A DNA stretch of 50,280 nt from Sumerlaeia bacterium (GCA_040219255.1 JAVJSW010000044.1:1-50280); one strand, 5' to 3'. Positions 6,695 through 45,009 are shown, numbered from the stretch's first letter. Notes: generated from the letters alone by a model not told the origin. Made by a program: numbers and translations.

Positions 6695-6759
6695 CAGGAA
6701 TGCGACGTGGTGAGACAAGCTTTCCCATGATGCATGAACTTAAAGGATGATATGTAACC

Positions 6760-15049: not shown

Positions 15050-15690
15050 ACCGTCCGCCTCTCCTCCAACCAATCGGCCATCGCCTCGCGCAGCGCCTTG
15101 CGTGCGCGGTTGATCCGGGACTTCACCGTCCCGATGGGTACCTCCAGGGCTTCCGAAATCTCTTCATAGCTCAGCTCCTCGAAAAAGCGCAGCGTCAGCA
15201 CCTGCTGCCATTCGGGGTCCAGGGTTGCCATGCGCTCCTGCATCAGTTTCACCGCTTCGCGGTCGCTGGCCAGGGTCCGGGCGTCCACGCCGCCCGCTTC
15301 CCATTGTCGGGGCTCGGCGTCCTCGTCGTTGCCGGCGGGGGCTTCCAGGCTGGTGTAGCGGGCCTTTTCGCGATTCTCCACGACGAAGCGATTCTTCGCC
15401 AGGTTCGACGTGATGCGGTACAGCCAGGTGCTGAACTTGCTCTCGGCGCGAAACTGGTGGATGTGGCGAAAGGCGCTGATCAGGACTTCCTGGGCCAATT
15501 CGAAGGCTTCTTCCTCGCGCCCGCCCAAGAAGCGCAGCGCGGTGCGATAGGTGCGATCCTGGTGGGCCGCCAGCAGCCGTTCCAGCGCTCGCTGGTCGCC
15601 GGCCTGGGCGCGTTCCACCAAATCCCGCTCTTGCTCGCGGGTCAGTTCCTCAGAGGAATCCCCGCCTTGCGTCACCATAGACATCGCCAT
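15046..15690 (-). CDS. ECF RNA polymerase sigma factor
   Basis: FSTWLYRI region 2 and LSYEEISEALEVPIGTVKSRINRAR region 4; start could be 15690, 15684 or 15678. Confidence 0.95.
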   Translation of the reverse strand: MAMSMVTQGGDSSEELTREQERDLVERAQAGDQRALERLLAAHQDRTYRTALRFLGGREEEAFELAQEVLISAFRHIHQFRAESKFSTWLYRITSNLAKNRFVVENREKARYTSLEAPAGNDEDAEPRQWEAGGVDARTLASDREAVKLMQERMATLDPEWQQVLTLRFFEELSYEEISEALEVPIGTVKSRINRARKALREAMADWLEERRTV

Positions 15691-18126: not shown

Positions 18127-18441
18127 AGGAGGAACCGTGTAGGGGAAAAAAATGAAGGGCTGAATTTACGGGCGCCCGCCAGCGCTGTCAAACCCAACTG
18201 TTTTCGCCATGGAAAAGGAGCGATTCGAAGAGGGCAACTCGGGATCGCACGGGAAAATGTGATTGACCCTATTCCAGGCCATTCCTATCGCTGCTTTTGG
18301 TAACTGACTGGACTGCTTAGGCGTTTGCGAAGTTTGATCGCATCGGTCCTTCCCCGATCCTTCGGAGGAATGGACTCCCCGCCTCTCCCACCGGTCGGCA
18401 TTTTCGCAGGATTTCGCGCACGGACGGAAAGCCCCTCTCGC

Positions 18442-20346
18442 ATGCCTCTCAAGAAGTGCCTAGGCGTTGATCTCGGCTCCAACACCGTCAAAATCGTAGA
18501 GCTCGCGCTGGAACGCAACGGTGTGCGCGTTCTTCGCGCCGCCTCCGCGGAGACCGGCGTCGATCCCTCCATGCCCAGCGAAGAGCGCCGCGCCATCATC
18601 TCCAAGACGGCGCGCGATCTGATCCGCGGCGCCAAGATGGGCACCAAGGACGCCGTCTTCGTCCTCCCCGGCCAGAAGGTTTTCATCCGCCGCTTCCGCC
18701 TCCCGGAAACCAGCCCGGAACGCCTCGAGCGCATTATCAACTACGAAGCGCGCCAGCAAATCCCCTTCCCTCTCGACAAGACCGACCTCCAGTTCCAGTT
18801 CTTCCCCATCCCCGAAGACAAGGAAGTGGAAGTCCTACTGGTCGCTGTGCGGCACGATGAAGTGAACGACTTCATGACGATGGTCGACAAGACCGGTCTC
18901 AAACCGCGCCTCATCAGCGTCAGCTCGTTCGCCGTCTTCAACGCCCAGGCCTACATGGCGCGCCCCGCGGCCGCCGTCGTCGAGGCCCTCAACCCCCGCA
19001 AGGCCAAGTCGGCCAAGAAGACCAAGGGGAAGAAAAACAAGAAGAAGAAGGGCGAGGACGTCGCCGATGAGGACATCCTGGTCGGCGGTGAAGGCGACGA
19101 GGAGGCCCTCGACGAGGAATTCGTCTTCGAGGAAGTCAAGGGCTTCGTCAACGTCGGCGCCGTGGCCACCGACCTCGTCGTGGCGCGCCAGCAGGGCGAC
19201 AAGTCCCTCCCCGGTTTCTTCCGCAGCTTTCCTGTCGCCGGCAATGAAATCACCCGCAACATCATGGAAGATTGCGGCATCGAGAGTTTCACCGACGCCG
19301 AGGGCGTGAAGCGCCATCAGACCCGCCTGATGACCTTCGACTTCGATTTCGACGAAGGCGGCGACACCAATCGCGACGCGTGCGGCGCGGCGACCGACGC
19401 CGTGGACCGGCTGGTCAACGAAATCCGCCGCTCGCTCGATTTCTACATTTCACAGCCCGACGGCCAGGCCGTCGACTTCCTGCTCGTGTCCGGCGGCCAG
19501 GCGAACCTGCCCGGCATGGACACCTACATCGAAGAAAAGCTGACGATCACGACCAGCGTCCTCTCCGATGTGCCTGAAGACACCGCTCTCCAATGGCCCA
19601 ACCCGGGCGAATCGATGGCGGCCTACGCGCCCGCCATCGGCGCGGCCCTCCAAGGCATCGGCATGGGCGGCCTGGAAGTGGACTTCCTGCCCCGCGAACG
19701 CAAAATCACCCGCGACTTCCCCTACAAGACCGCGGCGATTCTGGCGGTCCTCCTTCTGGGCGTTCTCTTCTTCGCCGCCCAGGCGGGCGAGAAGTACATG
19801 TCGCTCTACAGCCAGGAAACCGCCGCGCTCGAAAATGTTATGCTCCAGCGCCGCGAGCAAGATCTCGCGGCCCGCGAGGCGGACCAGCAAAATGTCGCCG
19901 TCGCCAAGCTTTACGAGGATTTCGCCAAGGGCGTGACGCAGCGCGATTACTGGCTCGAATTCCTTGCCAACATCAATCGCCTCAAACCGCCGGAAGTGGT
20001 CATCGACCGCGTCGAAGCCGATCACGACGGCAACTTCGAAATCGTCGGCGTCAGTGAGACGGAGCGCTCCTCGGCCGACTTCGCGAAGGCGATGCAGGAA
20101 AGCATGGAGAATTTCATGCGGGAACCGGAGATCACCCGGTCCGCCCAGACGCGCGACCCCCGCTTCCCCGACCGGCAAACCGTTTACCGTTTTGTGATCG
20201 AGGGTGAAATGCAGGATAAGATCAACATTCTCAATATCACCCCGACCCCGACCCCGACCCCCACGGGTGGTCCCCAGGGATTCCGGCCGGGCATTCAGGG
20301 ACAGGGCGGCAGCCGTAACAACTTCGCCCCCGGCCGGGGATTCTAA
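18442..20346 (+). CDS. Type IV pilus/T2SS assembly protein, PilM-PilN-like fusion
   Basis: GVDLGS, EARQQIPFP and VSGGQA actin-fold PilM motifs, then VDFLP, a TM helix, coiled coil and PilN-like periplasmic domain. Confidence 0.85.
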   Translation: MPLKKCLGVDLGSNTVKIVELALERNGVRVLRAASAETGVDPSMPSEERRAIISKTARDLIRGAKMGTKDAVFVLPGQKVFIRRFRLPETSPERLERIINYEARQQIPFPLDKTDLQFQFFPIPEDKEVEVLLVAVRHDEVNDFMTMVDKTGLKPRLISVSSFAVFNAQAYMARPAAAVVEALNPRKAKSAKKTKGKKNKKKKGEDVADEDILVGGEGDEEALDEEFVFEEVKGFVNVGAVATDLVVARQQGDKSLPGFFRSFPVAGNEITRNIMEDCGIESFTDAEGVKRHQTRLMTFDFDFDEGGDTNRDACGAATDAVDRLVNEIRRSLDFYISQPDGQAVDFLLVSGGQANLPGMDTYIEEKLTITTSVLSDVPEDTALQWPNPGESMAAYAPAIGAALQGIGMGGLEVDFLPRERKITRDFPYKTAAILAVLLLGVLFFAAQAGEKYMSLYSQETAALENVMLQRREQDLAAREADQQNVAVAKLYEDFAKGVTQRDYWLEFLANINRLKPPEVVIDRVEADHDGNFEIVGVSETERSSADFAKAMQESMENFMREPEITRSAQTRDPRFPDRQTVYRFVIEGEMQDKINILNITPTPTPTPTGGPQGFRPGIQGQGGSRNNFAPGRGF

Positions 20347-20400
20347 AGACTTGAACGCAGGACAGAGAGAGACGCGCCGCGAGCGCACTGGGAGAACGCG

Positions 20401-20901
20401 ATGAACAAGGAAAAACTCCAGGAAATCGGCCAGCTCCTGCTCAAGCGCATGGATCAGGTGGCCATCGTCGTCTTCCTCGCTCTGCTTGTCGCGGCGGGCT
20501 ATGTGTTCCTGCAGGAACAAAACGATCAAGTGCCCGAGATCATGCTCACCAACCCCGCTCCCTTCCAGAATAAAGTGGAGGGCGAGAATTTAGAAGAAAT
20601 CCAGGATCAAATGATCGACACGCCGGAAGGTATTCGCAACGATCCGGAATTGCGCCGCGTGGTTCAGATCAATATGTTCGACCTCAAATCGGTGCGGGAA
20701 GCGAGTGCGCAAGAGCGTCAACTGCGCGAGCAGTTCACGACCGCCGAGCGTCTCGCCGAGGAAGGTAACACGCAGGCTGCGATTCGAGCCTTGAATGACA
20801 TCCTGCGCGTGAACCCCGATTTCACCCAGGCCGCTGAACTCAAAGAGCGGCTGGAAAATCCTCAACCCGAACCCAGCGAAGGAGGAACGGAAACCAACTG
20901 A
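20401..20901 (+). CDS. Bitopic membrane protein with C-terminal TPR-like helices
   Basis: N-terminal TM; AIRALNDILRVNPDFTQA; lies between pilMN and the secretin gene. Confidence 0.65.
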   Translation: MNKEKLQEIGQLLLKRMDQVAIVVFLALLVAAGYVFLQEQNDQVPEIMLTNPAPFQNKVEGENLEEIQDQMIDTPEGIRNDPELRRVVQINMFDLKSVREASAQERQLREQFTTAERLAEEGNTQAAIRALNDILRVNPDFTQAAELKERLENPQPEPSEGGTETN

Positions 20902-21077
20902 CCCAGACTCACGATTTTCAGTCGCGCCAAGCCCGTCCCGCTCGTTCCCAACGGGGAGCGGCCTCCCCGTTGTGGGGGCTATTGAGAGCTTGACACCCTT
21001 GCGCGAAAAGTCGTTGCGTTCCAGGAAACCGGTTCCTGTTCCTTCGGTGCATCCATTTCAGGAGTGACCCCTGTCTT

Positions 21078-24000
21078 ATGAGCCGCCAGCTTTCCAAACG
21101 GTGTGTGACCGCCTTGTGCCAGACAGCCCTCTTGGGCTGCGCTTTGGCAATGTCCTTGGCGTGCCTCAGCGCCAAGACATCCCAGAGCGAAAAACGGGCC
21201 AGTGGGTCTGAACGCCAAGCCCAGGTCAAGACCGACTCCCAGCGCGTCGATCAATTGCTCGACCAAGCCGATCGCGCCCTTCAACAAGGCGATGTGGAGA
21301 CTGCTCTTGCCCTGACCAACGAAGCGGCCGCGCTCGACCCCAACAACCGCCGCGCTCTCAATTTGCTGGCCGACATTCAGGAAGTCGAATCGACCGCGAT
21401 CGCTTCCGCCGAGCCCCGAGTTGTCCGCGAAGAGCCCATCGAGGTCGCCCAGGCCCCCGCTCCCGCGACCCGCCGTACCGTCTATCCTCCCGCCAGCTCG
21501 ACCACCGCCTCCTCCGGAACCTCGTCCGTGGATGCGCAAGCCGTCGTCGTTGTCATGGAAGAAGACGCCGAGGCCGATGTGATCGTTGTCGCCCAGGCCG
21601 AGCCCACGCCCGCGCCCCGCATGCCTTCACGTCCAGTCCTCAATTCCGAGCGAGTCAGCAGCACGGCGGAAGCGACCGCCACCGGCGGCCAGTCCGTCGC
21701 GACTCCGGCCCGCACTCCGGCCGCGACTCCGGTGCCGACGCCTCGCCCCACGATGGCCGCTCCGTCTCCCATGGAAACGGCCGCTCCCGCTCCGGCACCC
21801 ATCCCCGCGCCGGTGGAGCCCTCGCGCCCGATGATCGCGCAGGGCAAAGTCACCGACAGCGCTGTCGCCGTCCCCGGACCCAACGCCAACTTCCCCACCC
21901 AGACGGTCAGCCGGCCGGCTCCCGAGCCGCGCTACACGCCCCGTCCCGTGGTTCAGTCTGAACGCGTGATGCAGACCACGACCCGCCAGGACGTCCCCAT
22001 GGGCGCCCCTTCGGCCGGAATGGATTGCACCCGCGACATCAGGGAATTCCTGCGCACGGCTCGCGCCGAGGCCCGCAACGGCAATTACGACGCCGCCATG
22101 CGGACCCTGGCCGACGCCTCCGCCTGCTATCCGGCGGAAGAAGCCCGCATCGAGCGCGTCCGCGAGGACATCGCCGCGGAGCGCGACACCATGGCTTCGG
22201 CGAGCGATCAGCGTTCGGACCGCGAAGCGCGCAAGCGGGCGGAAGCCCTCTTTGAAGAAGGCGAAGCGATCTACGATGCCAACCCGGGCGATCTCGCGGC
22301 GCTGCGCCGGGCCCGCCAGTTGTGGCTCGACGCTCTGGAAATCGATCCGGCTTACGAACTTCCGGCCGTTTACCTGGCCAACACGGAAGCCGACTTCAAC
22401 ACCCTGGAATCCCAGGACCGGCGCGAAGAAAACTTCCGCGACCGCGAAGCCGTCGCCCTCCAGAAGCTGGAGACGCCGGTCAGCATCGCCACCGAAGTTC
22501 CGACGCCGCTCAGCCAGATCCTCTTCAATCTCAAGCTGATCACCGACATCAACTTCGTGCTCTCGGGCATCAGCGGCGACGCCAACGTGGTCGTGAACTT
22601 CACGGACAAACCGCTGCGCGAGATCCTCGATTCGATGCTTCTGCCGATCGGCCTGAAGTGGGAACGCAAGCCGGGCGAAGACACCATCGTCATCACCCCG
22701 AACCTGCGCACCAAGGTCTTCAAGGTCTCGCCGGACGAACTGGCGAAGATCGACGCGCTGATCGAGAAGGGCACTCTCCAGGCTCTCCTCTACGGCCCCG
22801 ATGGCCAGAAGGCTCTCGACAGCCAGGAACTGTATACCGACCTGCGCCAGAACGTGGTGGTCATCACCGACTCGCAGCAGAACATCGAGAAGCTGGGCCA
22901 ACTCATCGGCGAGCTGGAAAGCCAGGCTGACGTCGGGCTCGTTTTCAAGAGCTACCTGATTCAGGAAGACAAGGCGCCGCGCATCAAGGCGATCCTCGAA
23001 GCGCTGCTTCGCGTCGATGACCGGGCACCGTTCAACCCTGACCGCAAGCTGATCATCGAAGGCGGCGAGCTGATCGTCAAAGACACGCCGGACAACATCG
23101 CCCGCGTGGAGAAGATCCTGCAAGACCGCCAGTTCCTGCGCCAGATTTACAGCAACGAGTTGGACGTGCGGACCTTCAACCTGACGCCCGTCCTGGAAAT
23201 CCAGGACAACCGCGAGCAGGCCCGTCAGTTCGCCGAGAACATCGTGCAGGTGGTGGAAACCCTCCTCTACGCCCAGGAAGGGCGCCGTCAGGCAAATGCC
23301 CAGGGCCGCCGCCTGTTCTATGACGAGGCCACCCTGCAACTGACGGTCGTGGACTTCCCCGATCGCCTCAAGCAGGTGCAAGACTTCATCGAGTCCCTTC
23401 CCCAGATCGAGCAGCGCCGCCGTCAGAAGATCATCTTCCTGAACTGGGCGAGCGCGGCTGATCTGGCCGGGCAAATCCAGACCTTCCTCGGAACCGCTCC
23501 GCTGCAAGCCGGCGGTGGCGACACCGGTGGCGATTCGATCACCAAGACCCTCCGTGTGGAAGGCGAACTGGAATTCCGTGGCGCTTTCTTCCGCGTGGTG
23601 CGGGTGAACGAGAACGATGCCATCGATGAGAACGACGACGACGTGGAACTGGTGGTCCGCACAGGCACGACGACTCAGGACACGACGATCGAAGAATTCC
23701 GTTCGGAATTCGTGGAAGACTACGAAATCGTCGCCGACGATGTGGATCCCTCCAGCACTCCTGGCGAAGGGCGCGCGAAGCTGACGATCCGCTACGTACC
23801 CGGTGGCCAGGGCGGTGGGGGCGCGGTGGCTCCGGTCGCGGCTCCCGTCGCCGGTCTTTCTCCCGCTGTCGGCGCCGTGCCGGGCGCAGGGGTCGCGGGT
23901 GTTGCCGGTGTCGATCCGCTGACTGGCCTGCCGCTTGGCTTGGCGGCCGCCATCGTCGAAGAGGCTGGCGCGACGGTCGAACCGATCGAAAACCTGAACG

Positions 24001-24938
24001 CCATCTTCATCGAGTACGAGAACGCCAGCGACTTGCAGGAAGTCGAGTTCTACATCGAAACGCTCGATGTGCCGACGCTTCAGGTCACGATGGAAATCAA
24101 GTTCGTGGAAGTGGTCGAAAGCAAAGCCAAGCAGCTTCAGTCCGAATTCCGCATCGGCAACCTGCTCGAGCTGAGCGACGTTTCCCTCGGCGACGGGAGC
24201 CTCGGCGGCCGGTTCGCCCAGGACACGGACGAGTTCACGAACCCGTTCGAGCCGTTCATCGAGAGCACGCAGAGCGCGAATCTGCTGAAGGGCGCGACGG
24301 TGTTCAACTACATCCTGAACAATGGCCAATCGCCGATCGCGCTGACGCTGCGGGCGCTGGAAAGCCAGGGCATCATCAACGTGGTGAACGCTCCGTCGAT
24401 CACGGTGCTCAACGGCGAGTCGGCGACCTTCGAGATCACGCGCGAGTTCGGTCTCGCCCGGCCGCCGGAAGGCGCCACCGGTGGCGGCGATCAGGACAAC
24501 TTCATCATTCCTCCGAGCCTGGAAGCGGTCGTTCTGGAAGTCACGCCGAGCGTGACGCAGGCGGGCAACATCACGCTGGATCCGATTTCCGCGGAAATCC
24601 GCGACTTCGATCAGAGCCTCGGCGCCCAGCAGGCGCTCAGCGGCTTCCTCGGCGACACGGGGATTGTCTCGAGCCGCGACAACTACCTTGCGACGACGAA
24701 CTCCGTCGGCGGTCTGGGCGTTCTCGTGAAGGAAATCGACACCATCGCCCGCATCCGCGATGGCGGCACGGTGGTTCTGGGCGGCTGGCGCAACGAGCGC
24801 AAGTCCGACTCGGAAACCGGGGTTCCGATCCTGAGCGACATTCCCTTCATCGGCAAGTTCCTCTTCAGCCGCCAGCAGGAGACCCTCGACAAGATCACCC
24901 TGATGATCTTCCTCACCGGCTCCGTCGTCCGCGACTAA
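21078..24938 (+). CDS. Large secretin (PilQ/GspD family)
   Basis: QVTMEIKFVEV, APSITVLNGE, GGTVVLGG and GVPILSDIPFIGKFLFS secretin motifs; N-terminal TPR-like and Pro-rich regions. Confidence 0.9.
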   Translation: MSRQLSKRCVTALCQTALLGCALAMSLACLSAKTSQSEKRASGSERQAQVKTDSQRVDQLLDQADRALQQGDVETALALTNEAAALDPNNRRALNLLADIQEVESTAIASAEPRVVREEPIEVAQAPAPATRRTVYPPASSTTASSGTSSVDAQAVVVVMEEDAEADVIVVAQAEPTPAPRMPSRPVLNSERVSSTAEATATGGQSVATPARTPAATPVPTPRPTMAAPSPMETAAPAPAPIPAPVEPSRPMIAQGKVTDSAVAVPGPNANFPTQTVSRPAPEPRYTPRPVVQSERVMQTTTRQDVPMGAPSAGMDCTRDIREFLRTARAEARNGNYDAAMRTLADASACYPAEEARIERVREDIAAERDTMASASDQRSDREARKRAEALFEEGEAIYDANPGDLAALRRARQLWLDALEIDPAYELPAVYLANTEADFNTLESQDRREENFRDREAVALQKLETPVSIATEVPTPLSQILFNLKLITDINFVLSGISGDANVVVNFTDKPLREILDSMLLPIGLKWERKPGEDTIVITPNLRTKVFKVSPDELAKIDALIEKGTLQALLYGPDGQKALDSQELYTDLRQNVVVITDSQQNIEKLGQLIGELESQADVGLVFKSYLIQEDKAPRIKAILEALLRVDDRAPFNPDRKLIIEGGELIVKDTPDNIARVEKILQDRQFLRQIYSNELDVRTFNLTPVLEIQDNREQARQFAENIVQVVETLLYAQEGRRQANAQGRRLFYDEATLQLTVVDFPDRLKQVQDFIESLPQIEQRRRQKIIFLNWASAADLAGQIQTFLGTAPLQAGGGDTGGDSITKTLRVEGELEFRGAFFRVVRVNENDAIDENDDDVELVVRTGTTTQDTTIEEFRSEFVEDYEIVADDVDPSSTPGEGRAKLTIRYVPGGQGGGGAVAPVAAPVAGLSPAVGAVPGAGVAGVAGVDPLTGLPLGLAAAIVEEAGATVEPIENLNAIFIEYENASDLQEVEFYIETLDVPTLQVTMEIKFVEVVESKAKQLQSEFRIGNLLELSDVSLGDGSLGGRFAQDTDEFTNPFEPFIESTQSANLLKGATVFNYILNNGQSPIALTLRALESQGIINVVNAPSITVLNGESATFEITREFGLARPPEGATGGGDQDNFIIPPSLEAVVLEVTPSVTQAGNITLDPISAEIRDFDQSLGAQQALSGFLGDTGIVSSRDNYLATTNSVGGLGVLVKEIDTIARIRDGGTVVLGGWRNERKSDSETGVPILSDIPFIGKFLFSRQQETLDKITLMIFLTGSVVRD

Positions 24939-29740: not shown

Positions 29741-32700
29741 TCAGCCGGCGGCGGGCGCGGCCAGTTGCTCGGCGACCTTTTTCGCCGTCTCGGCGTTCAA
29801 GGGCGCGCCGCCCATTTCGTGCATGATGATGAGCTGGTTGAAGGCGCCCTTGAGTTCGCGCACGTTGGACGTGATGGCTTCCGCCAGGATGTTGAGGGCG
29901 TCGTCGGGGACGTTCAAATCCTCGCGCTCCATGGCGACGCGGCGGAGGATGGCCATGCGCGTTTCGAGCTGGGGCGCCTGGATTTCCACGATGACGCCGG
30001 CGCCGAATCGCGACATGAGGCGTTTTTCGAGGTGGGCGATTTCCTTGGGCGGGCGGTCGCTGGTGATGACGATCTGGCGCTTGCTCTGGTAGAGCGTGTT
30101 GAAGATGTGGAAGAATTCTTCCTGGCTCGATTCCTTGCCCGCGAGGAGGTGGGCGTCGTCGAGGAGGAGCAGTTCGGCGGCTTTGTGTTTCTGGCGGAAC
30201 TGGATGACCTGGTTGTTCTGGATGGCGTCGATCAGCTCGCTGGTGAAGTCCTCGGCGTTGGTGTAGATGATTTTGATGCCGGGGTTTCCGTCGAGGACGT
30301 AATTCGCGATGGCGTGGAGGATGTGGGTTTTGCCCATGCCGACGTCGCTGTGGAGGAAGAGGGGGTTGTGTGGGGTGTTGCCGGGGGATTTGGCGACGGC
30401 CTGGGCGGTGGCCCAGGCGAAGCGGTTGTGGTCGCCGACGACGAAGTGGTCGAAGTCGTACTCCTTCATGACTTGGAGGGAGGCGGGGCGATGGTGCATG
30501 TCGGAGGAGCCGGCGCGTGGGATTTCGTCGGCCTTGAGTTCCATCAGGGGGGCCAGTGTGCGCCACTCGCGGAGGGCTTTCTGGACGTCGCCGGTTTCTT
30601 CGTAGATTTCGGCGCGCATACGGCGTGCGGGGATGTGGTCCTTGTCGATTTCCAGGGCGGCGCCGAGGGATTCGAGGGCGTCTTCGAACTCGCCGGCGGA
30701 GCGGTGGTAATCGGCCAGATTCATGACTTCTTCGAGGGCGTCGTGGTTCAGGCCGGCATCGTGGAGGGCTTCCGCCAGAGCCCGGCGCCGATCCACGTCG
30801 TCGGGGTTGAGGGCGGCGGCCTCGCGCCGCGCCGCCAGGGCGCCTTCCTTGTCGCCTTCTTTCTGGCGGATGTTGGCGATGGCGTCGAATTGCACCATGG
30901 CGGTGGGGATGTCGCTGTAGTTGTCGTCGAGGCAGACATCGATCAGCTTGCGGCGCAGGACGATGTTGTCGGGGTCGATGTTGACGGCTTCGCTGAGGGC
31001 CTTGGCGGCTTCGCGGAAGCGGCGCGATTCGGTGTGGGCGATGGCCATGTCGAGGAGGCGGCGGATGGTTTCGTCTTTGTGGACGCCGCCTTTCTTGGCC
31101 ATTTCGGCCATTTTGTGCTGGGCCAGGTCGTTTTCCGGATCGACGAGGAGGGCTTCGTGGAGCATGGCGTAGGCGCCGTCCGGTTCGCCCATCGCTTCTT
31201 TGCGTTCGGCGATGGAGAGGAGCTGCTTGGAGGCGTCGCGGTGGCGGTGGTGGCGACGGAGGAAATCGGCGTATTTCTGGCGGACTTCCATATCGTTGCC
31301 GTCGCGCTTGATGAGGCCGCGGAACAGATGGCCGGCTTCGTCGACCTCGTTGCGGCGGTCGTGGACGGCGATCAGTTCGTAGATTTGGTCGTCGGCGGCG
31401 GCGTGGCGCCCGGCGGCGCGGAGCAGAGCGGCGAGGCGCTTGTGGAGGCCCACGTCGTCGGGCTCGGATTTGAGCATCTGGCGCAGGATGCCCTCGGCGC
31501 GGGCGATGTCTTCGCTGGTCATGGCGCCGCTGCGGATCAGGTGATCGATGAGTTGCAGCGCGCCGGGGCGATCGTTGGCGTCGCGGCGGATTTCGGCCAG
31601 GGTGAGGCGGGTCGAGCGGGCTTCCGCCAGATGGTTGCGGCTTTCCTGCAAATCGGCCAGCAGTTCGAGGGCCTGTGGGTCTTTGGCCCCGGCGGCCACG
31701 CAGCGTTTCAGCAGTTCCTCCGCCCGTCCTTCCTGGTTGTCCTCGAGGAAGCGGCGGCAGGCGCGAAGGCGCTGCACCTGAGCGTCGTTCTGGCGGCCCA
31801 CGGCGTCCAGGGCGTCGCCGTATTCTTCGATGATCTGGGCGTCGTCGGGCGTTTGTTTGACGCACTTGGCCAGCCAGCGAACGCGGCCCTCTTTGTCGTT
31901 GGCGCCGAGGCTGATGTGGGCGTGGGCGCGCAGGGCCTTCATGGCCGAGGGGTCGGCTTCGAGAATATCGTCGAGAACGCTGTGGGCTTCGGCGAAGGCG
32001 CCGGCGCGGCGATGGGTTTCCGCCAGACGGTAGCGTGCTTCCGTGGAGAGATCCGGCCGATTCAGGCGTTGATAGGCGATCACGAGGCGTTCCAGGACCG
32101 CGGTGCTGTCGGGGCTGGCGCTGACGAGTTTGACGAGGGCTTCGACGGCGGGCCGGTTCGCGGCGGCGCCGAGCAGGTTGTCGACCAGACGCAGCGACGC
32201 ATTGAGTGTTTCGGGTGTCAGGCCTTGCAGGATGCGGATTTCCACGTAGCGCAGGGCCACCGGTCCGCTGGAGGGTTCGACCTGGGCGGCCTGCTCCAGC
32301 GCGTCGCAGGCGGCCTGGAGATCGCCGCGGTCTTCCGCGTCGCGGGCTTCCGCCACCAATTCGCGGGCCGCCTTGCCCGACTGGCCCGTCGTCACAAGGA
32401 GTTGAGTAATCATCGGCCTCACGTCAATAGCGGCCGAGGAGGCGTTCGCCTCCACCTGGCGGTAGGCCCAGAGGGCTTCCTGCAAGTCGCCCGCTTCCTC
32501 CGCCGCGTCGGCGAGAAGCATGAGGTGCTGGGCGGCGGTTTCCGCTTCCTCGCGCTTGAGGTGGACTTCGGCCAGTTTGCGGCGCCAGGCGCGGTTGGAC
32601 GGGTCGGCCTCCAATTCGCCGGTCAGCAGATCGATGGCGGCCTGATCGTTGCCGAAGCCCAATTCCGCATCCGCCAGACGGGTTACCAGGAGAGCCGCGG

Positions 32701-33229
32701 CGCCATCCTCGCCGCCTTTCTTCTTGAGGCGCAGCAGCACCCGGAGCGCGCGGACATGATTGGGGTCGAAGGAGAGGACCTCTTCGAGCTTGGCCACGAT
32801 GGCTTTGGCCTTTGGCCCCAGGGGGCCTGTTTCCGTGTCCATCTGGCCCACGAAAGCTTCCGCCGCGTCGACGTGCTGATCGAGTTTCTGAAGGTCTTCG
32901 GGCAGGGCGATTTCGATACCGAACTCATCGCAGAGCGACTTGACCGCTTGATCGAAGGTGACGCCGCGGGAGCCGGCGAAGAGATCGATGAGGTTGCCGC
33001 CCGCCTGGCCTTTGCACCCCGGTTCCGTGCATTGGTAGGTTTTCGTTTCCTCGTCGAGCATCATGCTGCGCGATTCTTCTTCTTCGCCATGGAGGGGACA
33101 GGAGCATCGGATTTTGCCGCCGCCGCGCTGCATCGACCCCGGGAAGTAGTCGATGAACTCGAGGACATCGAGGACGTCGAGGCCGTCGAGCACCTGCCGG
33201 ATTACGGTTTCGGAGTGTTTCGTCTTCAT
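29741..33229 (-). CDS. CHC2 zinc finger - TPR-like repeats - DnaA-like AAA+ fusion protein
   Basis: N-terminal CPLH...C..PGC; many helical repeats; C-terminal FDHFVVGDHNRFA, NPLFL.SDVGMGKTH, LLDD, QEEFFHIFNTL, SDRPP, RLMSRF and NVRELKGA; ends without DnaA domain IV. Confidence 0.9.
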   Translation of the reverse strand: MKTKHSETVIRQVLDGLDVLDVLEFIDYFPGSMQRGGGKIRCSCPLHGEEEESRSMMLDEETKTYQCTEPGCKGQAGGNLIDLFAGSRGVTFDQAVKSLCDEFGIEIALPEDLQKLDQHVDAAEAFVGQMDTETGPLGPKAKAIVAKLEEVLSFDPNHVRALRVLLRLKKKGGEDGAAALLVTRLADAELGFGNDQAAIDLLTGELEADPSNRAWRRKLAEVHLKREEAETAAQHLMLLADAAEEAGDLQEALWAYRQVEANASSAAIDVRPMITQLLVTTGQSGKAARELVAEARDAEDRGDLQAACDALEQAAQVEPSSGPVALRYVEIRILQGLTPETLNASLRLVDNLLGAAANRPAVEALVKLVSASPDSTAVLERLVIAYQRLNRPDLSTEARYRLAETHRRAGAFAEAHSVLDDILEADPSAMKALRAHAHISLGANDKEGRVRWLAKCVKQTPDDAQIIEEYGDALDAVGRQNDAQVQRLRACRRFLEDNQEGRAEELLKRCVAAGAKDPQALELLADLQESRNHLAEARSTRLTLAEIRRDANDRPGALQLIDHLIRSGAMTSEDIARAEGILRQMLKSEPDDVGLHKRLAALLRAAGRHAAADDQIYELIAVHDRRNEVDEAGHLFRGLIKRDGNDMEVRQKYADFLRRHHRHRDASKQLLSIAERKEAMGEPDGAYAMLHEALLVDPENDLAQHKMAEMAKKGGVHKDETIRRLLDMAIAHTESRRFREAAKALSEAVNIDPDNIVLRRKLIDVCLDDNYSDIPTAMVQFDAIANIRQKEGDKEGALAARREAAALNPDDVDRRRALAEALHDAGLNHDALEEVMNLADYHRSAGEFEDALESLGAALEIDKDHIPARRMRAEIYEETGDVQKALREWRTLAPLMELKADEIPRAGSSDMHHRPASLQVMKEYDFDHFVVGDHNRFAWATAQAVAKSPGNTPHNPLFLHSDVGMGKTHILHAIANYVLDGNPGIKIIYTNAEDFTSELIDAIQNNQVIQFRQKHKAAELLLLDDAHLLAGKESSQEEFFHIFNTLYQSKRQIVITSDRPPKEIAHLEKRLMSRFGAGVIVEIQAPQLETRMAILRRVAMEREDLNVPDDALNILAEAITSNVRELKGAFNQLIIMHEMGGAPLNAETAKKVAEQLAAPAAG

Positions 33230-33366: not shown

Positions 33367-33645
33367 TTACAAGACAAAGCCCTTCTTCTTCGCCAGAGTC
33401 TTCTTTCCTTCCAACACCATGCGGCGGTAATCGCCCCCGGTGCGCAGGATCTCCGTCTTGTGCTTGGCCAGCATTTCCTCGGCCTGTTTTTCCAGTTCGT
33501 CTTCTTCGCGCAGATTGTTCTGTAACGCGCGGCGCACGGCCGCCACCACCGCGTCCGCGTCGCGCAGGTCCACGTGGGGGCTATCCTTGAGCGCCCGCAA
33601 AGCGAGCACTGACAGGGAGTTCATTCGATTGGGAGAGAGACGCAT
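33367..33645 (-). CDS. DUF507-like protein
   Basis: MRLS N-terminus, E.ELEKQA core and KKTLAKKKGFVL C-terminus. Confidence 0.75.
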   Translation of the reverse strand: MRLSPNRMNSLSVLALRALKDSPHVDLRDADAVVAAVRRALQNNLREEDELEKQAEEMLAKHKTEILRTGGDYRRMVLEGKKTLAKKKGFVL

Positions 33646-39828: not shown

Positions 39829-40475
39829 CAGGCGCGGTGTCCTTCCAGCAGGCGGGGCACGATGTCCGACCATCGCGCATAGGGCTGGTAGGGCTCGCCC
39901 CGTTCGTCCAGCAGTTCCGCCAGAGTTCCCCGGGCAAAGCGCCGCTGCGGCGGCACCAGCAGCGCGGGCTCCACATCCGGCCGCCCATCGCCGGCGAAGG
40001 CCACCATCGCGTCGCGTTCCATCGCCGACCGCACGATGGCCGCCTTGTCGATGCCGTGCTCGCGTTCGAGAAACGGACTGCCGGTGGGCAACTCCATCCG
40101 CAGGGCGCCGCCTTCGTCGAACTGTCCGGGGTTCGAGTGAAACTCGGCCTCGATCCCCGCCCGCGCGAACAGCCTCTCGATGTACCAGGAGCAGCCTGCC
40201 GAGGCGACAATCAGATCCCATCCATTCCGCCTCAGATCAGCGATCGCCCCGGCGGCCCCAGGGTCGAAATCCATCGTGTCCAGCACCGCCTCGATCTCTT
40301 TGGGCGTCGCCCGGATTTCGGCGAAGATGCGCTTCAGCGCCTCGAAATGCGTGATTTCGCCGTTTTCGTAGGCGTGCCAATGGCGCATGGCGCCGGGCGG
40401 CGTGTGGCGCTCCGTCACCACGCCATAGAAATCGCGCTGGGTCATGGTGCCATCGAAGTCGGAGACGAAAATCAT
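39828..40475 (-). CDS. HAD-IB phosphatase (MtnX-like)
   Basis: SDFDGT, ASAG, IDK and GDGRPD motifs; TGATG overlap with the dehydrogenase start. Confidence 0.88.
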   Translation of the reverse strand: MIFVSDFDGTMTQRDFYGVVTERHTPPGAMRHWHAYENGEITHFEALKRIFAEIRATPKEIEAVLDTMDFDPGAAGAIADLRRNGWDLIVASAGCSWYIERLFARAGIEAEFHSNPGQFDEGGALRMELPTGSPFLEREHGIDKAAIVRSAMERDAMVAFAGDGRPDVEPALLVPPQRRFARGTLAELLDERGEPYQPYARWSDIVPRLLEGHRA

Positions 40476-40702
40476 GGGGTGAATCCTTGGGAGGGCTCCG
40501 GGAACGATGAGGCCAACCCGGCCCCGGCGCGAGCGTGTTTCAAGTCCTAGGGCATGACGGGGGGGAAGACCGTGGGTAGAGACAGGCGGATGACTATCCC
40601 GTTTGAATGACTGCCATGTGGCTTGAAGTTTCGGTTTACCTCAGCTTAGCTCTTCTTGACGGATTTTCCGGATGATGCCGCTGTTGTAGTGCTCGGGCAT
40701 TA

Positions 40703-41581
40703 GAGCGTGTCCGAAGTCCCAAAATCACCCCGCCAGCCCCCTCAGCAGCCTCTGGATCGACGCCACGTCGATCCACGCCTCGCTCGACGAAGGCAAGTGC
40801 TCGTAGTCTTTCGCCAGCCTTCGGCACCGGCTCAGCCACGCGATCGTGCGCTCCACAACCCACCGCTTCGCCGCCACCACAAACCCTTTTACGCCCTCCT
40901 TGCGTTTGACGATTTCAAGTTCCAGACCCACTTTTTCCGCCTCGCGCCGCAGCCTCTCGCCCCCGTAGGCGCTGTCGCCGTAAACCTTCCAAAGCCGCTC
41001 CCAGTCCCGATTTGCGGCCTGCGCGAAGAGCTCCACCGCCGCCACGCTATCGTGCTCGCGGGCGCTGCCGACAAGGCGCCCAATCACGCGCCCTGACATG
41101 TCGACGAGGATGTGACGCTTGCGGCCTTTGACCTTTTTGCCGCCGTCGAACCCCCTCAAAGGCCCCCTTTTTCTGTCGTCTTCACGGACTGTGAATCGAT
41201 GACGGCGACGGACGGGCTCGGCTTTTTCGCCTGCGTTTTGCGGCTCTGGCGGACCAGGCAGTGCTCGATTTCGCGCCAGACCCCTTCTTTTGTCCACTCT
41301 CGGAAGTAATGGTGGACGGTTTTCCATTTCGGCAGGTCGTGGGGCAGGAGGCGCCAAGGGCATCCGGCGCGGAGCTGGTACAGGATGGCGTTCACGATTT
41401 CACGGTAAGAGACTTGACGTTGCTCGGCTTGCGGGACATTCTCTCGCAGCACGGGCCAAAGAACGGCCCACTGCGCGTCGGTCAAGTCGGTGTCGTAACG
41501 GGAGCGGTCGGGAGCGTGAGAAGACATGGCGGAAGGTTGCCAAACCCAATGGCCTCAGTCAAAGGAAGTTCGGACACGCTC
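40703..41581 (-). mobile_element. IS5-family insertion sequence (IS1031/IS427-like), 879 bp
   Basis: 13-bp perfect terminal IRs GAGCGTGTCCGAA; TTA target duplication at 40700-40702 and 41582-41584. Confidence 0.95.
40725..41527 (-). CDS. IS5 transposase split over two frames
   Basis: ORF A has YDTDLTDAQW, GCPWRLLPHD and IDSQSVKT; ORF B has GFDGGKKVKGRKRH, GDSAY and RWVVERT; frames join at GAAAAAGGGGG near 41162-41172. Confidence 0.9.
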
Positions 41582-41607
41582 TTATATCACAGCCTTCAAG
41601 AACAGCG

Positions 41608-42708
41608 TCACTTAATAGGTACCCAATACCCGCTTGGGTGCAATGCTTCAGTTTTTCCTGTGATCCGGTGGGTCCTGACAAACGTCGAACTCTTGAACAC
41701 TTCGACCTCTCTGTAGCTATACAGCGTTGGCCACGCAATCCATGCAAAACACAAAATGCCTCCCAAAACCAAAACGCAGACAATCCACGTACGTCTGTCC
41801 GACTTGCGAAACTGGGCGGCAATCAGGGTGGCGACACAGAAAAGGACATATAATACCGCGATTGCCCCCAGGGGCAATAAAAAATACTTTGCGTAGTACT
41901 CTTCTGAGTCTTCCAAGGGCTTGAAGTAAAAGGATGCTTTTCGCCCCGCAATGAGCTGTCGAACTCTTGGTTTGTATGCATTTCTTTCGATAATCCTGAG
42001 GAAAGCGGAGTCTTTATTGAGCGCATGATAAAAATATTCCCTACCGTACTCCTCCGTAAAATCCAAAGGAATTTCAAAAAGAGTTTCTCCTTCTACCAAG
42101 ATGGCAGATTTGCCAAAAATCTCAGTGTTTGCAGTTTCAAAAAAATACTTTGTAAAATAGTTGTCCACAATCAACCCAACGGGCTTTCCCATCCAGTACT
42201 CGCCTTGCCCGAATAAGTCAAATCTTGGTAGTATAAAGAATTGATGCGAGTCTGTCATAACGGGAGTTACTAATAAATGTGTTTTTGTCGTTGAGTCGTC
42301 CTCTAAATAAAATGAACGAACCTTGGAGACTGTTCCGATTATTAGTACATATCTTTCTTGAGTCAATATATCTATCCGTCCTGGTTGCGAATGCGCCTCA
42401 TAGGCCATGCCTTTGAGAATTTGATTGTTTTTGTCCAGATCGACTCCATACTTGGCGATTATGTCCCTAAATCTCTGCATTTGCGCATTGAACTTTGAAA
42501 TCTCGGCATCTGCGTGCATCTGAGCCAAGTCATTCTCTGCCTCTCTGTTGCTGTTGATTGTCGCGATAACGTGCCAGACAAGTAGTGCCAAGATGAACAG
42601 GTACCATTTTTGACGACTTTTCGGTTCACTTGGCATGGCGGAGGAGTCCTCCCTAACTTCTGTCGTGGTGGTGTTTTGATGGGCGAGCATGGGAGAGGAC
42701 TCAGACAA
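41608..42708 (-). CDS. AT-rich hypothetical membrane protein
   Basis: 366-aa ORF with one N-terminal and two C-terminal TM segments; AT-rich codon usage. Confidence 0.65.
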   Translation of the reverse strand: MSESSPMLAHQNTTTTEVREDSSAMPSEPKSRQKWYLFILALLVWHVIATINSNREAENDLAQMHADAEISKFNAQMQRFRDIIAKYGVDLDKNNQILKGMAYEAHSQPGRIDILTQERYVLIIGTVSKVRSFYLEDDSTTKTHLLVTPVMTDSHQFFILPRFDLFGQGEYWMGKPVGLIVDNYFTKYFFETANTEIFGKSAILVEGETLFEIPLDFTEEYGREYFYHALNKDSAFLRIIERNAYKPRVRQLIAGRKASFYFKPLEDSEEYYAKYFLLPLGAIAVLYVLFCVATLIAAQFRKSDRRTWIVCVLVLGGILCFAWIAWPTLYSYREVEVFKSSTFVRTHRITGKTEALHPSGYWVPIK

Positions 42709-42949
42709 TAGGGTCAGTTAATGCGTTACGGCTGGACTCGAACGTTGGGGCTTCAAGATTCGCACAACGAACCCCGCCGGTCCCCCACTTTCTCTTTGCA
42801 ACGTCCGTAAATTCAAGCACTCGCGCGCGCGTGAGCGGGTCGTACGAATAGTACAGGAGCTTTAGCAGCCTCATCAGATACATGCTCCCAACCTCTTTGG
42901 CCGCGAACCAACGAATCATGTCGAGCATCTTCGTGTGATTGTATGACAT
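42701..42949 (-). pseudogene. Possible truncated Panacea/SocA (DUF4065)-like antitoxin N-terminus
   Basis: AAGGAGGAG RBS; KMLDMIRWFA...RLLKLLYYS resembles the KLLY helix of DUF4065 proteins, then similarity is lost. Confidence 0.4.
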
Positions 42950-43322
42950 TGCTATAACTCCTTCCTTGGTGTGTAAGCGCTGATTTCTAAGTCATGCGCA
43001 CCGCTTCACACAGGTTGTGCCCTTACTGCTACCGCCGTCAGGATAGGGCAATCCAAGTGTGACACACAGGAGTTCGCATGACAAGCACAAGATGAGAGGA
43101 CTGACGGAGAAATACGAAGGAAAACCAAAGAAAAGCCTGGGTGCATGGCGAGGAAAAATCTAAGCGCCGAGGGGGAACGCGGAGGTGGAGCCCAGCGTCT
43201 TTGTGGGCAGGTGCGAGGAAGAGAGGCCATCCGCCTCCAGCCATCACGACCTGCGCTCAGAACCCTCATTTTCTCCGTCTTTCAGGAGGAAGGGCTTCTG
43301 TGTCTAACTCTTGCGAATTCAA

Positions 43323-43399
43323 TGGCGATCCAGGAGGGACTCGAACCCCCGACCGTCGGAGTAGAAATCCGATGCTCTATCCAGCTGAGCTACTGGACC
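43323..43399 (-). tRNA. tRNA-Arg(TCT)
   Basis: GGTCCAG/CTGGATC acceptor stem, TCGGA/TCCGA anticodon stem with TCT, GTTCGAG T-loop, encoded CCA. Confidence 0.95.
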
Positions 43400-43560
43400 G
43401 CGGCGCGAAGCGGGTCGTAGTGAAGCCCGCGGGGCGCGGGCAGGCAACTGGAAATGTGGGAGGATTGGCGTCAGGCGAGTTACGCTTCGCCAAATTTTCC
43501 CCTTGCGCCCGGGCGATAGGAGGGCGAAAGGTGGGGCAATCCTTCTGAGTCCCATGTCCC

Positions 43561-45009
43561 ATGATTCGCCGCATCGTCCTGGAAAACTACATGGCCCACG
43601 AGCGCACCGTCATTGAACCGGCGGAGGGTTTGACGGTGCTCATCGGGCCGAACAATTGCGGCAAGTCGGCGGTGATCTCCGCCTTGGAAACGCTCTGCCG
43701 GGGCACGGACGGGGACTTCATGGTGCGCCATGGGGCGCGGTCCGCGTCGGTTACCGTCGAGACGTCCGACGGCCATGTCGTGACTTGGCGCCGCCAGGGC
43801 AAGTCGTCTTATTACGACGTGGACGGGCACGATCTCGGAACGACCGGCAAGAACAAGAAAGAAAAGCTGGAAAAGGTCCACGGGGCGCTGCGCCTCGATC
43901 TGGTGCAGGTCAACGAAAAGGACGCCGTGGATGTGCATCTGGCGCTGCAGAAGCAGCCGATTTTCCTGCTGAGCGACACGGGATCGCAGGCGGCGGGGTT
44001 TTTCGCCAGTTCGTCGGATGCGTCGAAGCTGCTGGAAATGCAGGGCAAGCACCGCAGCAAGGTGCGCGAGGCGAAAGGTCGGCGGCGGACGCTGGAGGAG
44101 GAGCGGCTGAGGGTGGCGGGGCAGGCGGAAGCGCTGGCGCCGCTGGATTCGCTGCGGCCGAGGCTGGAGGCGGCGCGAGACGAGCACGGGGCGATGGTGC
44201 GCGCGCGCGAGCGAGAGGCGGCGCTCGAGGTCTTGATTGGCCGGCTGGCTTTGGCGGCGGCCCGCGTGGCGGCGCTGGAGCGCGAAGGCGCGGTCCTGCG
44301 CCGCACCCAGCCCCCGCCGGAGTTGGCGCCGACGGCGCCGCTGGAGGAATTGCTGGCCGAACTGGAGACCTGGACCCAGCGCCGGAGGGCGGCGGAGGCC
44401 CGGCAGAAAGGCCTGGAGCCCTTGGCCTTGCCCCCGATCCTGGCCGACGACAGGCCTCTGGCGGGGCTGTGCGAACGCCTGGGTAGGGCGCGGCGGCGCC
44501 TGACCGGCTGCGAGGGCCTCGCCACCGCCTGCCGACCCCTGCGAGACCCGCCCGCGATCGCGGAGACGGTGTCGCTGGAACGTCACCTTGCCGCGCGCCG
44601 GCGCCTGACTGACCTGGAAACGCGGCGCGCGGGCGATGCGCAGGCGCTCGCGCCCCTGTCCGCGCCGCCCGTGCTCGGCGACGAAAGCCGCCTGGCGGCG
44701 GTCATTCTGGGCCTCCAACGCGCCGCCGCGCGCGCCGAGGCGCAGGAGGCGAAACAGCGCAGAATGGCTCATCTGCCCGGGCCTCCGGAACTCGCCGAGA
44801 CGCGGCCCCTGGAAGACTCGATCCGCCTTCTCGCGAAGGCCCAGGCGGCAGAGAAAAAAGCCGCCGCCGCGAAGGAAACGGCCAACGCCGCCGTAGGCGA
44901 AGCCGAAGCCGCCATCCGCCAATGGGCCACCGCGAACCCGACTTGTCCGACCTGCGGCGGCCCGGTCACGCCCGAACACCTGCTGCGGCACGGAGGGCCC
45001 GCCTCATGA
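43561..45009 (+). CDS. SbcC/Rad50-like N-terminal half (Walker A, coiled coil, zinc hook)
   Basis: MIRRIVLENYMAH, GPNNCGKS, probable Q-loop LQKQPIF and terminal CPTCG; no Walker B. Confidence 0.88.
   Translation: MIRRIVLENYMAHERTVIEPAEGLTVLIGPNNCGKSAVISALETLCRGTDGDFMVRHGARSASVTVETSDGHVVTWRRQGKSSYYDVDGHDLGTTGKNKKEKLEKVHGALRLDLVQVNEKDAVDVHLALQKQPIFLLSDTGSQAAGFFASSSDASKLLEMQGKHRSKVREAKGRRRTLEEERLRVAGQAEALAPLDSLRPRLEAARDEHGAMVRAREREAALEVLIGRLALAAARVAALEREGAVLRRTQPPPELAPTAPLEELLAELETWTQRRRAAEARQKGLEPLALPPILADDRPLAGLCERLGRARRRLTGCEGLATACRPLRDPPAIAETVSLERHLAARRRLTDLETRRAGDAQALAPLSAPPVLGDESRLAAVILGLQRAAARAEAQEAKQRRMAHLPGPPELAETRPLEDSIRLLAKAQAAEKKAAAAKETANAAVGEAEAAIRQWATANPTCPTCGGPVTPEHLLRHGGPAS
44314..44898 (+). 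repeat. Five 39-aa Pro-Pro helical repeats within SbcC-N
   Basis: Pro-Pro codons start at 44314, 44431, 44548, 44665 and 44782, exactly 117 bp apart. Confidence 0.85.

Follow-up and report, generated by a model that had tools for sequence, protein, structure and literature searches.

The textbook definition of DnaA rests on origin recognition. Several described proteins are related to its AAA+ module: Hda and HdaA are DnaA-family AAA+ proteins without the DNA-binding domain, DnaC, DnaI and IstB belong to the same AAA+ clade, and DnaI also has an N-terminal zinc-binding domain. The primase DnaG carries a zinc domain of its own (PF01807; structures 1d0q and 2au3). The gene described here joins elements of DnaG and DnaA. 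It lies in a stretch of 50,280 nucleotides from a Sumerlaeia bacterium (GCA_040219255.1 JAVJSW010000044.1:1-50280), a member of the uncultivated phylum Sumerlaeota, and this whole stretch is called the window in the following. At 29741..33229, on the minus strand, the window contains a single uninterrupted frame with an ATG start and no internal stop, the start of which lines up with the conserved N-terminus M-x-x-(Y)-P/S of 27 orthologues. The encoded protein is real and joins a DnaG-type zinc domain, a scaffold resembling tetratricopeptide repeats (TPR) and domain III of DnaA. We refer to it as the fusion protein. Its layout is as follows:

29741..33229, minus strand: whole open reading frame (ORF), 1162 codons plus stop codon (ORF reading, start aligned to the 27 orthologues)
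32906..33211, minus strand: DnaG-type zinc-binding domain, residues 7-108 (Pfam PF01807, genome scan with the same coordinates, 1d0q by sequence and fold)
30524..32815, minus strand: predicted TPR-like alpha-solenoid, residues 139-902 (Pfam TPR families, AlphaFold2 (AF2) model, helix spacing)
30467..30523, minus strand: predicted flexible linker between solenoid and AAA+ module, residues 903-921 (low predicted local distance difference test score, pLDDT, and low column identity)
29759..30466, minus strand: DnaA domain III, AAA+ core and lid, residues 922-1157 (PF00308, TIGR00362, 8bv3/8btg/2z4r/1l8q)
30326..30349, minus strand: Walker A motif SDVGMGKT, residues 961-968 (G964, G966, K967 and T968 invariant in 28 orthologues)
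30155..30172, minus strand: Walker B motif LLLLDD, residues 1020-1025 (D1024 and D1025 invariant)
30002..30022, minus strand: box VII with the arginine finger, RLMSRFG, residues 1070-1076 (R1070, R1074 and F1075 invariant in 29 of 29 fusion proteins)
29846..29869, minus strand: sensor II motif SNVRELKG, residues 1121-1128 (N1122 and R1124 invariant)

An earlier note, made from the sequence alone, had read the same three parts from this gene, namely a CHC2-like finger, TPR and DnaA domain III. All three are recognised by Pfam, and the finger and domain III also by sequence and fold matches in the PDB. Its coordinates, 32920-33229 for the finger and 29770-30478 for domain III, correspond to the computed ones, and the motifs it relied on are present in the ORF (SDVGMGKTH, LLLLDD, RLMSRF, SNVRELKG).

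The C-terminal module is that of DnaA. Pfam family Bac_DnaA (PF00308) matches residues 922-1081 with 197.3 bits (E 2.4e-58), and the 263 C-terminal residues align to domain III of B. subtilis DnaA (8bv3/8btg) with 240 bits, followed by DnaA of T. maritima and A. aeolicus. The corresponding part of the structural model fits 8bv3 with a TM score of 0.91 on the target and 47% identity. If compared with the DnaA structures (8bv3/8btg, 2z4r, 1l8q/2hcb/3r8f), core and lid are complete, and the Walker motifs, the box VII arginines, sensor II and the initiator-specific motif (ISM) are kept. However, the fusion protein differs from DnaA in important aspects as well. It has about 900 extra N-terminal residues, carries changes specific to its clade, is encoded away from dnaA and falls below the cut-off of the NCBIfam DnaA model TIGR00362, of which positions 100-339 of 437 match residues 916-1157 with 301.8 bits, while 343.9 bits are demanded. 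In addition, domains I and IV are absent, as the earlier note had stated: the protein terminates 5 residues past the lid of domain III, and domain I (PF11638), present in the canonical copy of the genome, is not among the 25 best of the 33 Pfam families that match the fusion protein. Domain IV (Bac_DnaA_C, PF08299) is found on no contig of the genome except C37, in the canonical dnaA. Judged by its domains, the protein is unable to read DnaA boxes or to find an origin alone.

To describe residue conservation, we took as canonical reference the 56 columns in which 21 Sumerlaeia DnaA and 71 other DnaA sequences share the same residue, each set with a conservation of 90% or higher. In the fusion clade, 38 of these 56 columns reach this level as well, and in most of the others the canonical residue is still that of the majority. 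Lysine and threonine of Walker A, both aspartates of Walker B, both box VII arginines (which we take to be the equivalents of E. coli R281 and R285) and asparagine and arginine of sensor II are kept in all 29 fusion proteins. Changes specific to the clade comprise A941T, G975A, glutamate and tryptophan of box VII replaced by glycine and alanine, serine and aspartate instead of the canonical two glycines at the first two positions of the P-loop, and a lysine in sensor II (K1127), where 90 of 92 canonical DnaA sequences have glutamate. By homology, the module should be able to bind and hydrolyse ATP and to present its arginine finger to the adjacent protomer.

At the other end of the protein, the DnaG-type zinc ribbon (Zn_ribbon_DnaG, PF01807) was detected at residues 7-108 with 33.3 bits (cut-off 24.9, E 4.4e-8), and the predicted zinc ligands of the window copy are C44, H47, C67 and C72. 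C44 and the following P45 are invariant across 31 aligned sequences. The 135 N-terminal residues match 1d0q, the primase zinc domain of B. stearothermophilus, with an E value of 5.4e-6 by sequence. A model of the domain built from the 31-sequence alignment (pLDDT 85.4, predicted TM score (pTM) 0.74) gave, in a Foldseek comparison at E<=1e-3, two PDB entries only, and both are primase zinc domains: 1d0q first (E 2e-6, TM score 0.73 on the target, root-mean-square deviation 2.5 over 102 columns) and 2au3 second. Thus the N-terminus, which the earlier note had marked as one of the points where its proposal could fail, is a primase zinc domain by sequence and fold. Fold and CHC2 ligand pattern of the window copy are those of DnaG. 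In contrast to DnaG, neither DNAG_N nor TOPRIM follows (DNAG_N, PF08275, occurs only on contigs C77 and C78), the second cysteine pair is spaced C-x4-C, and ribbons of the fusion type reach 33-38 bits while the primases of the same genome reach 121-123 bits. Accordingly, the dnaG model TIGR01391 scores the fusion protein with 33.1 bits against a cut-off of 283.6. The net charge of the zinc domain (-17 to +4, median -4) does not separate fusion proteins from the genome's own primase domains (-1 and -5).

Both ends are connected by a long repeat scaffold. Many TPR families of Pfam match between about residues 300 and 890, several of them above cut-off. The AF2 model of this part comprises 42 predicted helices with pLDDT mostly between 80 and 94, and its long helices recur every 53-56 residues. 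The predicted unit thus has three helices and about 54 residues, unlike the plain TPR of 34 residues. Fold comparison indicates a resemblance to long TPR scaffolds that is generic only. The full-length model (mean pLDDT 85.5, pTM 0.39) suggests that the AAA+ module is flexibly tethered to the solenoid, because pLDDT drops below 50 for residues 899-916, where column identity is low as well. In DnaA, domain II tethers domain III similarly. A search of the ESM Atlas gave low scores (0.76 at best) to proteins with TPR and AAA modules of the CbbX/SpoVK type, which is a lead only.

This architecture is not restricted to the window. In a collection of species representatives, relatives were recognised in 545 of 597 candidate stretches. 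Among the best 80, which were kept, only nine loci reach past the AAA+ part. Their labels are Candidatus Sumerlaeota, Sumerlaeia or Sumerlaeaceae in seven cases and just "bacterium" in two. In the remaining 71, which are ordinary DnaA genes from other phyla, the match covers residues 814-1162 or less. When all 75 Sumerlaeota genomes, the window's own included, were searched with an E limit of 1e-40, 66 of them gave a fusion-type match (E <= 2.3e-80), usually in an open frame of 1360-1450 amino acids, and 17 of the 18 families of the phylum were represented. Eight genomes (G037, G046, G050, G061, G064, G068, G070, G074) stayed at 1e-53 to 1e-60, where matches to their canonical DnaA lie, and a single genome, 66% complete, gave no match at this limit. 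An exhaustive search of metagenome proteins revealed full-length relatives in roughly 55-60 clusters at 50% identity, while a word-based homologue search had found 3 relatives only. One full-length relative is named merely "tetratricopeptide repeat protein" at NCBI. The architecture search that the earlier note had proposed thus shows the fusion to recur across the phylum. As the fusion recurs in 66 of 75 genomes and its frame is intact in 28 orthologues, the architecture is no product of mis-assembly, which had been one of the note's concerns.

For the family comparison, 29 full-length orthologues were extracted, leaving out L110, missed by the motif filter, and L007, L011 and L013 with incomplete N-termini; 28 of them were aligned, L008 being left out as well. 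Most orthologues comprise 1358-1417 amino acids, three 2119-2152 and one 1749, and the predicted solenoid ranges from 760 to 980 residues. The window copy is the shortest. Gaps of 74, 108 and 33 residues follow its positions 450, 539 and 566 and correspond roughly to whole repeats. Bac_DnaA and TPR were detected in all 28 aligned orthologues. Column identity is 0.6-0.86 in the AAA+ module, about 0.55 in the zinc domain and about 0.4 in the repeats, where the only invariant positions are structural alanines, leucines, glycines and prolines. The AAA+ module is 40-48% identical to DnaA of the same genome. Across 19 genomes (171 pairs) the mean pairwise identity is 0.57 for the fusion AAA+ module and 0.61 for canonical DnaA, and the distances of both are correlated (r 0.60), in line with vertical descent. 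To judge from these comparisons, the gene is old, vertically inherited, phylum-specific and under constraint in the form of purifying selection.

Apart from the fusion gene, the genome has a replication-initiation set that is complete in itself. The genome of the window (83 contigs, 92% complete) has four Bac_DnaA matches, namely the canonical dnaA on C37 with DnaA_N, Bac_DnaA and Bac_DnaA_C, the fusion gene, a DnaC/DnaI-like gene on C30 and an IstB. The fusion is consequently a second DnaA-family gene and no replacement for DnaA. DciA (PF05258) was not found in this genome at its 92% completeness, and a search of 61 genomes of the class gave no DciA either. The DnaC/DnaI-like gene, in contrast to DciA, was found in 72 of the 75 Sumerlaeota genomes; these comprise all 43 of high quality and also genomes without the fusion. 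The phylum thus seems to use a loader of the DnaC/DnaI type. The protein comprises 243 amino acids with an N-terminal four-cysteine motif and an AAA+ module of the IstB_IS21 type. Besides, DnaG is encoded twice in the genome; both genes are complete and have DNAG_N as well as a strong zinc ribbon of their own (121-123 bits). Coordinates are:

C30:19321-20049 (L100:1432-2163, minus strand of L100): DnaC/DnaI-like gene
C77:165357-166115 and C78:29005-29742 (L151, L152, L154, L155): DnaG primase genes with PF01807 and DNAG_N

What might such a protein do? Our best reading, which we hold tentatively and at somewhat less than an even chance, is that of a replication-linked, ATP-gated, self-stacking scaffold acting with DnaA or single-stranded DNA (ssDNA). 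We infer oligomerisation, a DNA or DnaA substrate and a platform role in the following form. With ATP bound, the AAA+ modules would line up in a head-to-tail stack like that of DnaA protomers, joined through the arginine finger, either on ssDNA or at the end of a DnaA-ATP oligomer. Such stacking would gather the long repeat arms and their zinc-ribbon tips into a multivalent platform for other proteins. The fusion would then be an accessory to replication initiation or restart and not an initiator, because it would not find the origin alone; nor would it be a loader or an Hda. A stack of AAA+ modules, gated by ATP and gathering the arms into a platform, would be the most economical mechanism. 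A link to replication is favored by the origin of both end modules, which derive from DnaG and DnaA, and by an AAA+ module that stays very close to DnaA.

However, several observations weigh against this reading, beginning with the residues themselves. DnaA modules without domain IV that are fused to MshEN, T2SSE, DUF835 or zinc ribbons show the same catalytic, ISM and basic-motif residues, conserved to the same degree. Since these non-canonical modules keep them equally, the conserved residues do not discriminate between the readings: they argue for a working ATP-driven oligomerisation engine and not for a DNA substrate or a role in replication. The earlier note had gone from a conserved domain III to filaments on ssDNA in replication; conservation held, the step to replication is weakened by these fusions. 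Furthermore, the window copy has serine at the basic-motif position (presumably the counterpart of E. coli R245) where 20 of 29 fusion proteins have arginine. The zinc domain is not uniform either. The Pfam ribbon is found at E<=1e-3 in 13 of 28 orthologues, with the window copy scoring best, and 5 of 28 aligned orthologues lack two of the four ligands. These five (L009, L111, L120, L121, L122) represent one family with a CPLC motif, in which both cysteines of the second pair are gone. As this family has lost them, zinc binding, as predicted from the ligands, is not a fixed property of the fusion proteins, and neither is any primase-like reading of ssDNA.

The locus does not point to replication either, as no origin, dnaA or dnaN is linked to it. 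A search for a DnaA-box cluster found none in the window, the three one-mismatch hits in 50 kb comparing with 2.8 expected and none being near the gene. In two relatives assembled as single contigs the gene lies 1.34 Mb (G036, 3.29 Mb) and about 2.9 Mb (G033, 6.0 Mb) from dnaA. The earlier note had already seen no dnaN or oriC context around the gene. The sole conserved neighbor encodes a membrane-anchored protein and is no replication gene. In addition, no fusion-type match was obtained from 9 of 75 genomes. The gene is not indispensable, because four of these genomes (G037, G046, G050, G061) are at least 90% complete and show no copy.

Finally, phylogeny has to be considered. In a quick tree of 121 rows, the 29 fusion modules form one clade (support 99) and the 21 Sumerlaeia DnaA another (100), the latter near Fibrobacterota and Rhodothermota, with 81-84% support at deep nodes; the 71 outside DnaA in this tree are those most similar to the query and thus a biased sample. 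A second quick tree of 84 rows drew 12 rows from the 29 fusion proteins, 9 from the 21 Sumerlaeia DnaA and 18 from the 71 other DnaA; its remaining 45 rows are domains of 29 non-canonical proteins. Hits of fewer than 190 query residues were dropped, and the root was set at midpoint. Here the canonical DnaA clade (98) excludes the fusion, which groups with both AAA+ copies of MshEN proteins (94%, unstarred). In an approximately unbiased (AU) test, a topology with fusion and Sumerlaeia DnaA as one clade was kept (delta lnL 9.5, p 0.296), and a lineage-specific duplication as origin of the AAA+ module was consequently not rejected. The phylogeny against the true DnaA, suggested by the earlier note, hence gave a separate clade for the fusion and left duplication from Sumerlaeia DnaA standing.

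The foremost rival explanation, which we regard as almost equally probable, is an assembly switch outside replication. Here the AAA+ module would be an ATP-driven oligomerisation engine that arranges the TPR scaffold at the membrane or envelope, for a pilus, for polarity or for another machine of the envelope, and the ribbon would be a module for protein binding or targeting instead of reading DNA. This explanation gains from the company in which DnaA modules without domain IV are found. Our exhaustive search revealed tandem Bac_DnaA proteins of 585-697 amino acids, proteins with MshEN and two Bac_DnaA domains (1876 and 1990 amino acids), Bac_DnaA joined to a PilB-like T2SSE ATPase in a metagenome-assembled genome (MAG) labelled Thermoplasmata, Bac_DnaA joined to DUF835, and long proteins in which Bac_DnaA is followed by zinc ribbons. 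Several of them are publicly annotated as "chromosomal replication initiator protein DnaA". The proteins in question are:

P0053, P0055, P0057, P0060, P0065, P0076, P0077, P0082, P0093, P0126, P0130, P0132, P0144, P0145: proteins with DnaA domain III and without domain IV

Like the fusion protein, they have intact motifs, no Bac_DnaA_C and a fusion to domains not involved in replication, and the MshEN type is nearest in the quick tree. In contrast to it, none has the primase-type zinc ribbon or the TPR array, and given its four Bac_DnaA matches the window's genome contains none of them. The grouping with the MshEN copies outside canonical DnaA favors the switch, and position 999 points the same way, being leucine in the fusion and most non-canonical groups and phenylalanine in 59 of 92 canonical DnaA. 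However, this grouping comes from an unstarred node of a quick tree with midpoint root, and the AU test kept its alternative. The zinc ribbon, for its part, also heads giant proteins with TPR only and stands alone, which favors the switch; against this stands the derivation of both end modules from DNA-replication proteins.

Gene order adds to the case for a switch at the membrane. In 14 of 24 fetched loci, a small gene on the same strand follows the fusion at a distance of 0-122 bp, and in 10 of these 14 it is followed by a second gene of about 685 amino acids with a signal-peptide-like start, for which neither Pfam nor NCBIfam holds a family. The product of the small gene is anchored by one membrane helix and carries two short, conserved SHOCT-like motifs with a proline-rich linker between them. 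It is detectable in 43 of 75 genomes. Both genes occur in 40 genomes, and in 28 of these a comparison of coordinates by hand placed the small gene directly after the fusion. The 28 genomes belong to seven families and include each of the ten remaining members of the family to which the window's genome belongs. The genome of the window is an exception: its fusion protein is shortened and separated from the usual partners, so that the membrane partner resides on another contig, which counts against the switch:

C4:12916-15650 of G000 (L146, L147): the two usual downstream genes in the window's genome, a membrane protein and a protein of about 670 amino acids without family

Likewise, no pilus, MglA or chemosensory gene is conserved beside the fusion in the 24 loci.

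One might speculate further that the ATPase core of DnaA is a general, reusable ATP-polymerisation switch that has been built into machines unconnected with origin firing, in bacteria as well as in at least one archaeal MAG. The fusion would then be a 'Rosetta stone' that joins the switch covalently to those TPR adaptors that lie next to it in other phyla, and would nucleate a membrane-tethered TPR platform through its downstream partner instead of acting on the chromosome. We consider this broader idea rather unlikely. If it is true, a whole branch of the DnaA family outside replication has gone unrecognised.

The other explanations fare worse. An Hda-like negative regulator would dock on DnaA-ATP, trigger hydrolysis by its arginine finger and switch the initiator off. 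A DnaA relative with domain III only and an intact arginine finger fits this role, and as no Hda family match above 81 bits occurs in the fusion protein, the niche of Hda could be open. However, the same 81 bits of the NCBIfam Hda model TIGR03420 compare with a cut-off of 194.8 and with 301.8 bits for DnaA, and Hda chains in the PDB reach about 33 bits only. The protein is thus far closer to DnaA than to Hda or HdaA, and it is about five times longer than these. The clamp-binding motif, in the pattern that we used, was not matched in the window protein, and matches in five other orthologues occur at no shared position. Furthermore, the fully conserved ATP site would be needless for a pure trigger of hydrolysis, and 760-980 amino acids of scaffold plus the zinc ribbon would be left unexplained. 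This explanation is therefore improbable.

Even less probable, and by a clear distance from anything likely, is a helicase loader in place of the missing DciA, whose AAA+ module would open or load DnaB while its zinc domain contacts the helicase as in DnaI. That DciA was found neither in the window's genome nor in the 61 genomes of the class would leave room for it, and a zinc domain does stand N-terminal to an AAA+ module of the DnaA/DnaC clade. Yet matches to the described loaders are weak (IstB_IS21 37.5 bits; NCBIfam DnaI model NF006505 35.6 bits against a cut-off of 228), and 9 of 75 genomes do without the fusion. A loader role is unlikely because the DnaC/DnaI-like protein, which the window's genome has as well, is nearly ubiquitous, and the restart or helicase-loader idea of the earlier note loses ground accordingly. 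As for an artefact, that is a chimeric assembly or a decaying pseudogene, the shortness of the window copy and the six short pieces in which contigs of one public run cover the gene count little against a frame without stop, missing stretches of roughly whole repeat units, one public contig across the junction of zinc ribbon and repeats, and a three-part frame that is uninterrupted in 28 independently assembled orthologues and about 55-60 metagenome protein clusters, so that this explanation has practically no standing.

The public run just mentioned is the one DNA run that holds part of the gene; no RNA run is listed. Mapping across the junctions, as the earlier note had proposed, was thus possible in part: one contig bridges zinc ribbon and repeats, none the junction between repeats and AAA+ module. 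A promoter and terminator scan of the locus was uninformative.

Concerning the surroundings in the window, a DUF507 gene and a PP2C phosphatase gene lie upstream of the fusion, and tRNA-Thr, a DapB-like gene, def and polA downstream. Apart from the DUF507 gene in one locus (L107), these neighbors do not recur in the 24 orthologous loci. The DUF507-type gene itself (33367-33645, minus strand, 92 amino acids) matches positions 1-93 of 182 of the DUF507 profile only. Just upstream of polA, at 18325-24938 on the plus strand, a pilus-like cluster encodes a PilM_2 protein of 673 amino acids, a 166-amino-acid ORF without family and a secretin of 1286 amino acids with an N-terminal TPR hit. This cluster is on the strand opposite to the fusion, about 5 kb away from it, and was not seen again in the orthologous loci. 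Next to an ECF sigma factor gene (15049-15690), a CotH kinase-like protein of 761 amino acids with lamin-tail domains is encoded (15844-18126, minus strand). A DDE transposase gene (40728-41363, minus strand) lies inside a region of lower G+C content (40001-44000, 0.53-0.59 compared with about 0.64 elsewhere), and a second stretch of low G+C (0.53) spans 6001-8000. We also considered membership in anti-phage defence and rejected it: PADLOC gave two matches only (E 0.004 and 0.009, below 15 bits), neither meaningful, and the distribution is phylum-wide and vertical.

Divergent zinc domains of the primase type also occur outside the fusion family. In relatives they head giant TPR-only proteins of about 3050-3080 amino acids, and the exhaustive protein search revealed further such giants of 3043-3291 amino acids. 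The window's own genome holds a small stand-alone ORF with the ribbon:

L148:1242-10481, plus strand: TPR-only giant headed by a zinc ribbon, from a relative of the window's genome
L149:1824-10979, minus strand: TPR-only giant headed by a zinc ribbon, from a relative of the window's genome
L150:1929-2363, minus strand: small stand-alone zinc-ribbon ORF of the window's own genome

The literature searched contains no description of a zinc ribbon-TPR-DnaA architecture, and the earlier note's caveat that it might already be functionally described found nothing to stand on there. In the main text of the Sumerlaeota genomics paper PMC8092238, the terms DnaA, TPR, tetratricopeptide and primase have zero occurrences. 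New in our analysis are the count across the phylum, the combination of DciA not found with a ubiquitous DnaC/DnaI-like gene, and the conserved membrane-protein neighbor. New as well are the predicted three-helix period of the repeats, the loss of predicted zinc ligands in one family and the observation that conserved residues do not allow a choice between a replicative and a non-replicative reading.

Taken together, almost the whole phylum keeps a second DnaA engine, apparently blind to DnaA boxes, on a primase finger and a huge scaffold. The protein is suited to easy production and biochemical testing. If it acts with DnaA, it would add a novel type of accessory factor for initiation, in a lineage in which DciA was not found. 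If it does not, it would join the other modules without domain IV as a case of the initiator ATPase being reused outside replication. Either answer alters how "DnaA" annotations in metagenomes are to be read.

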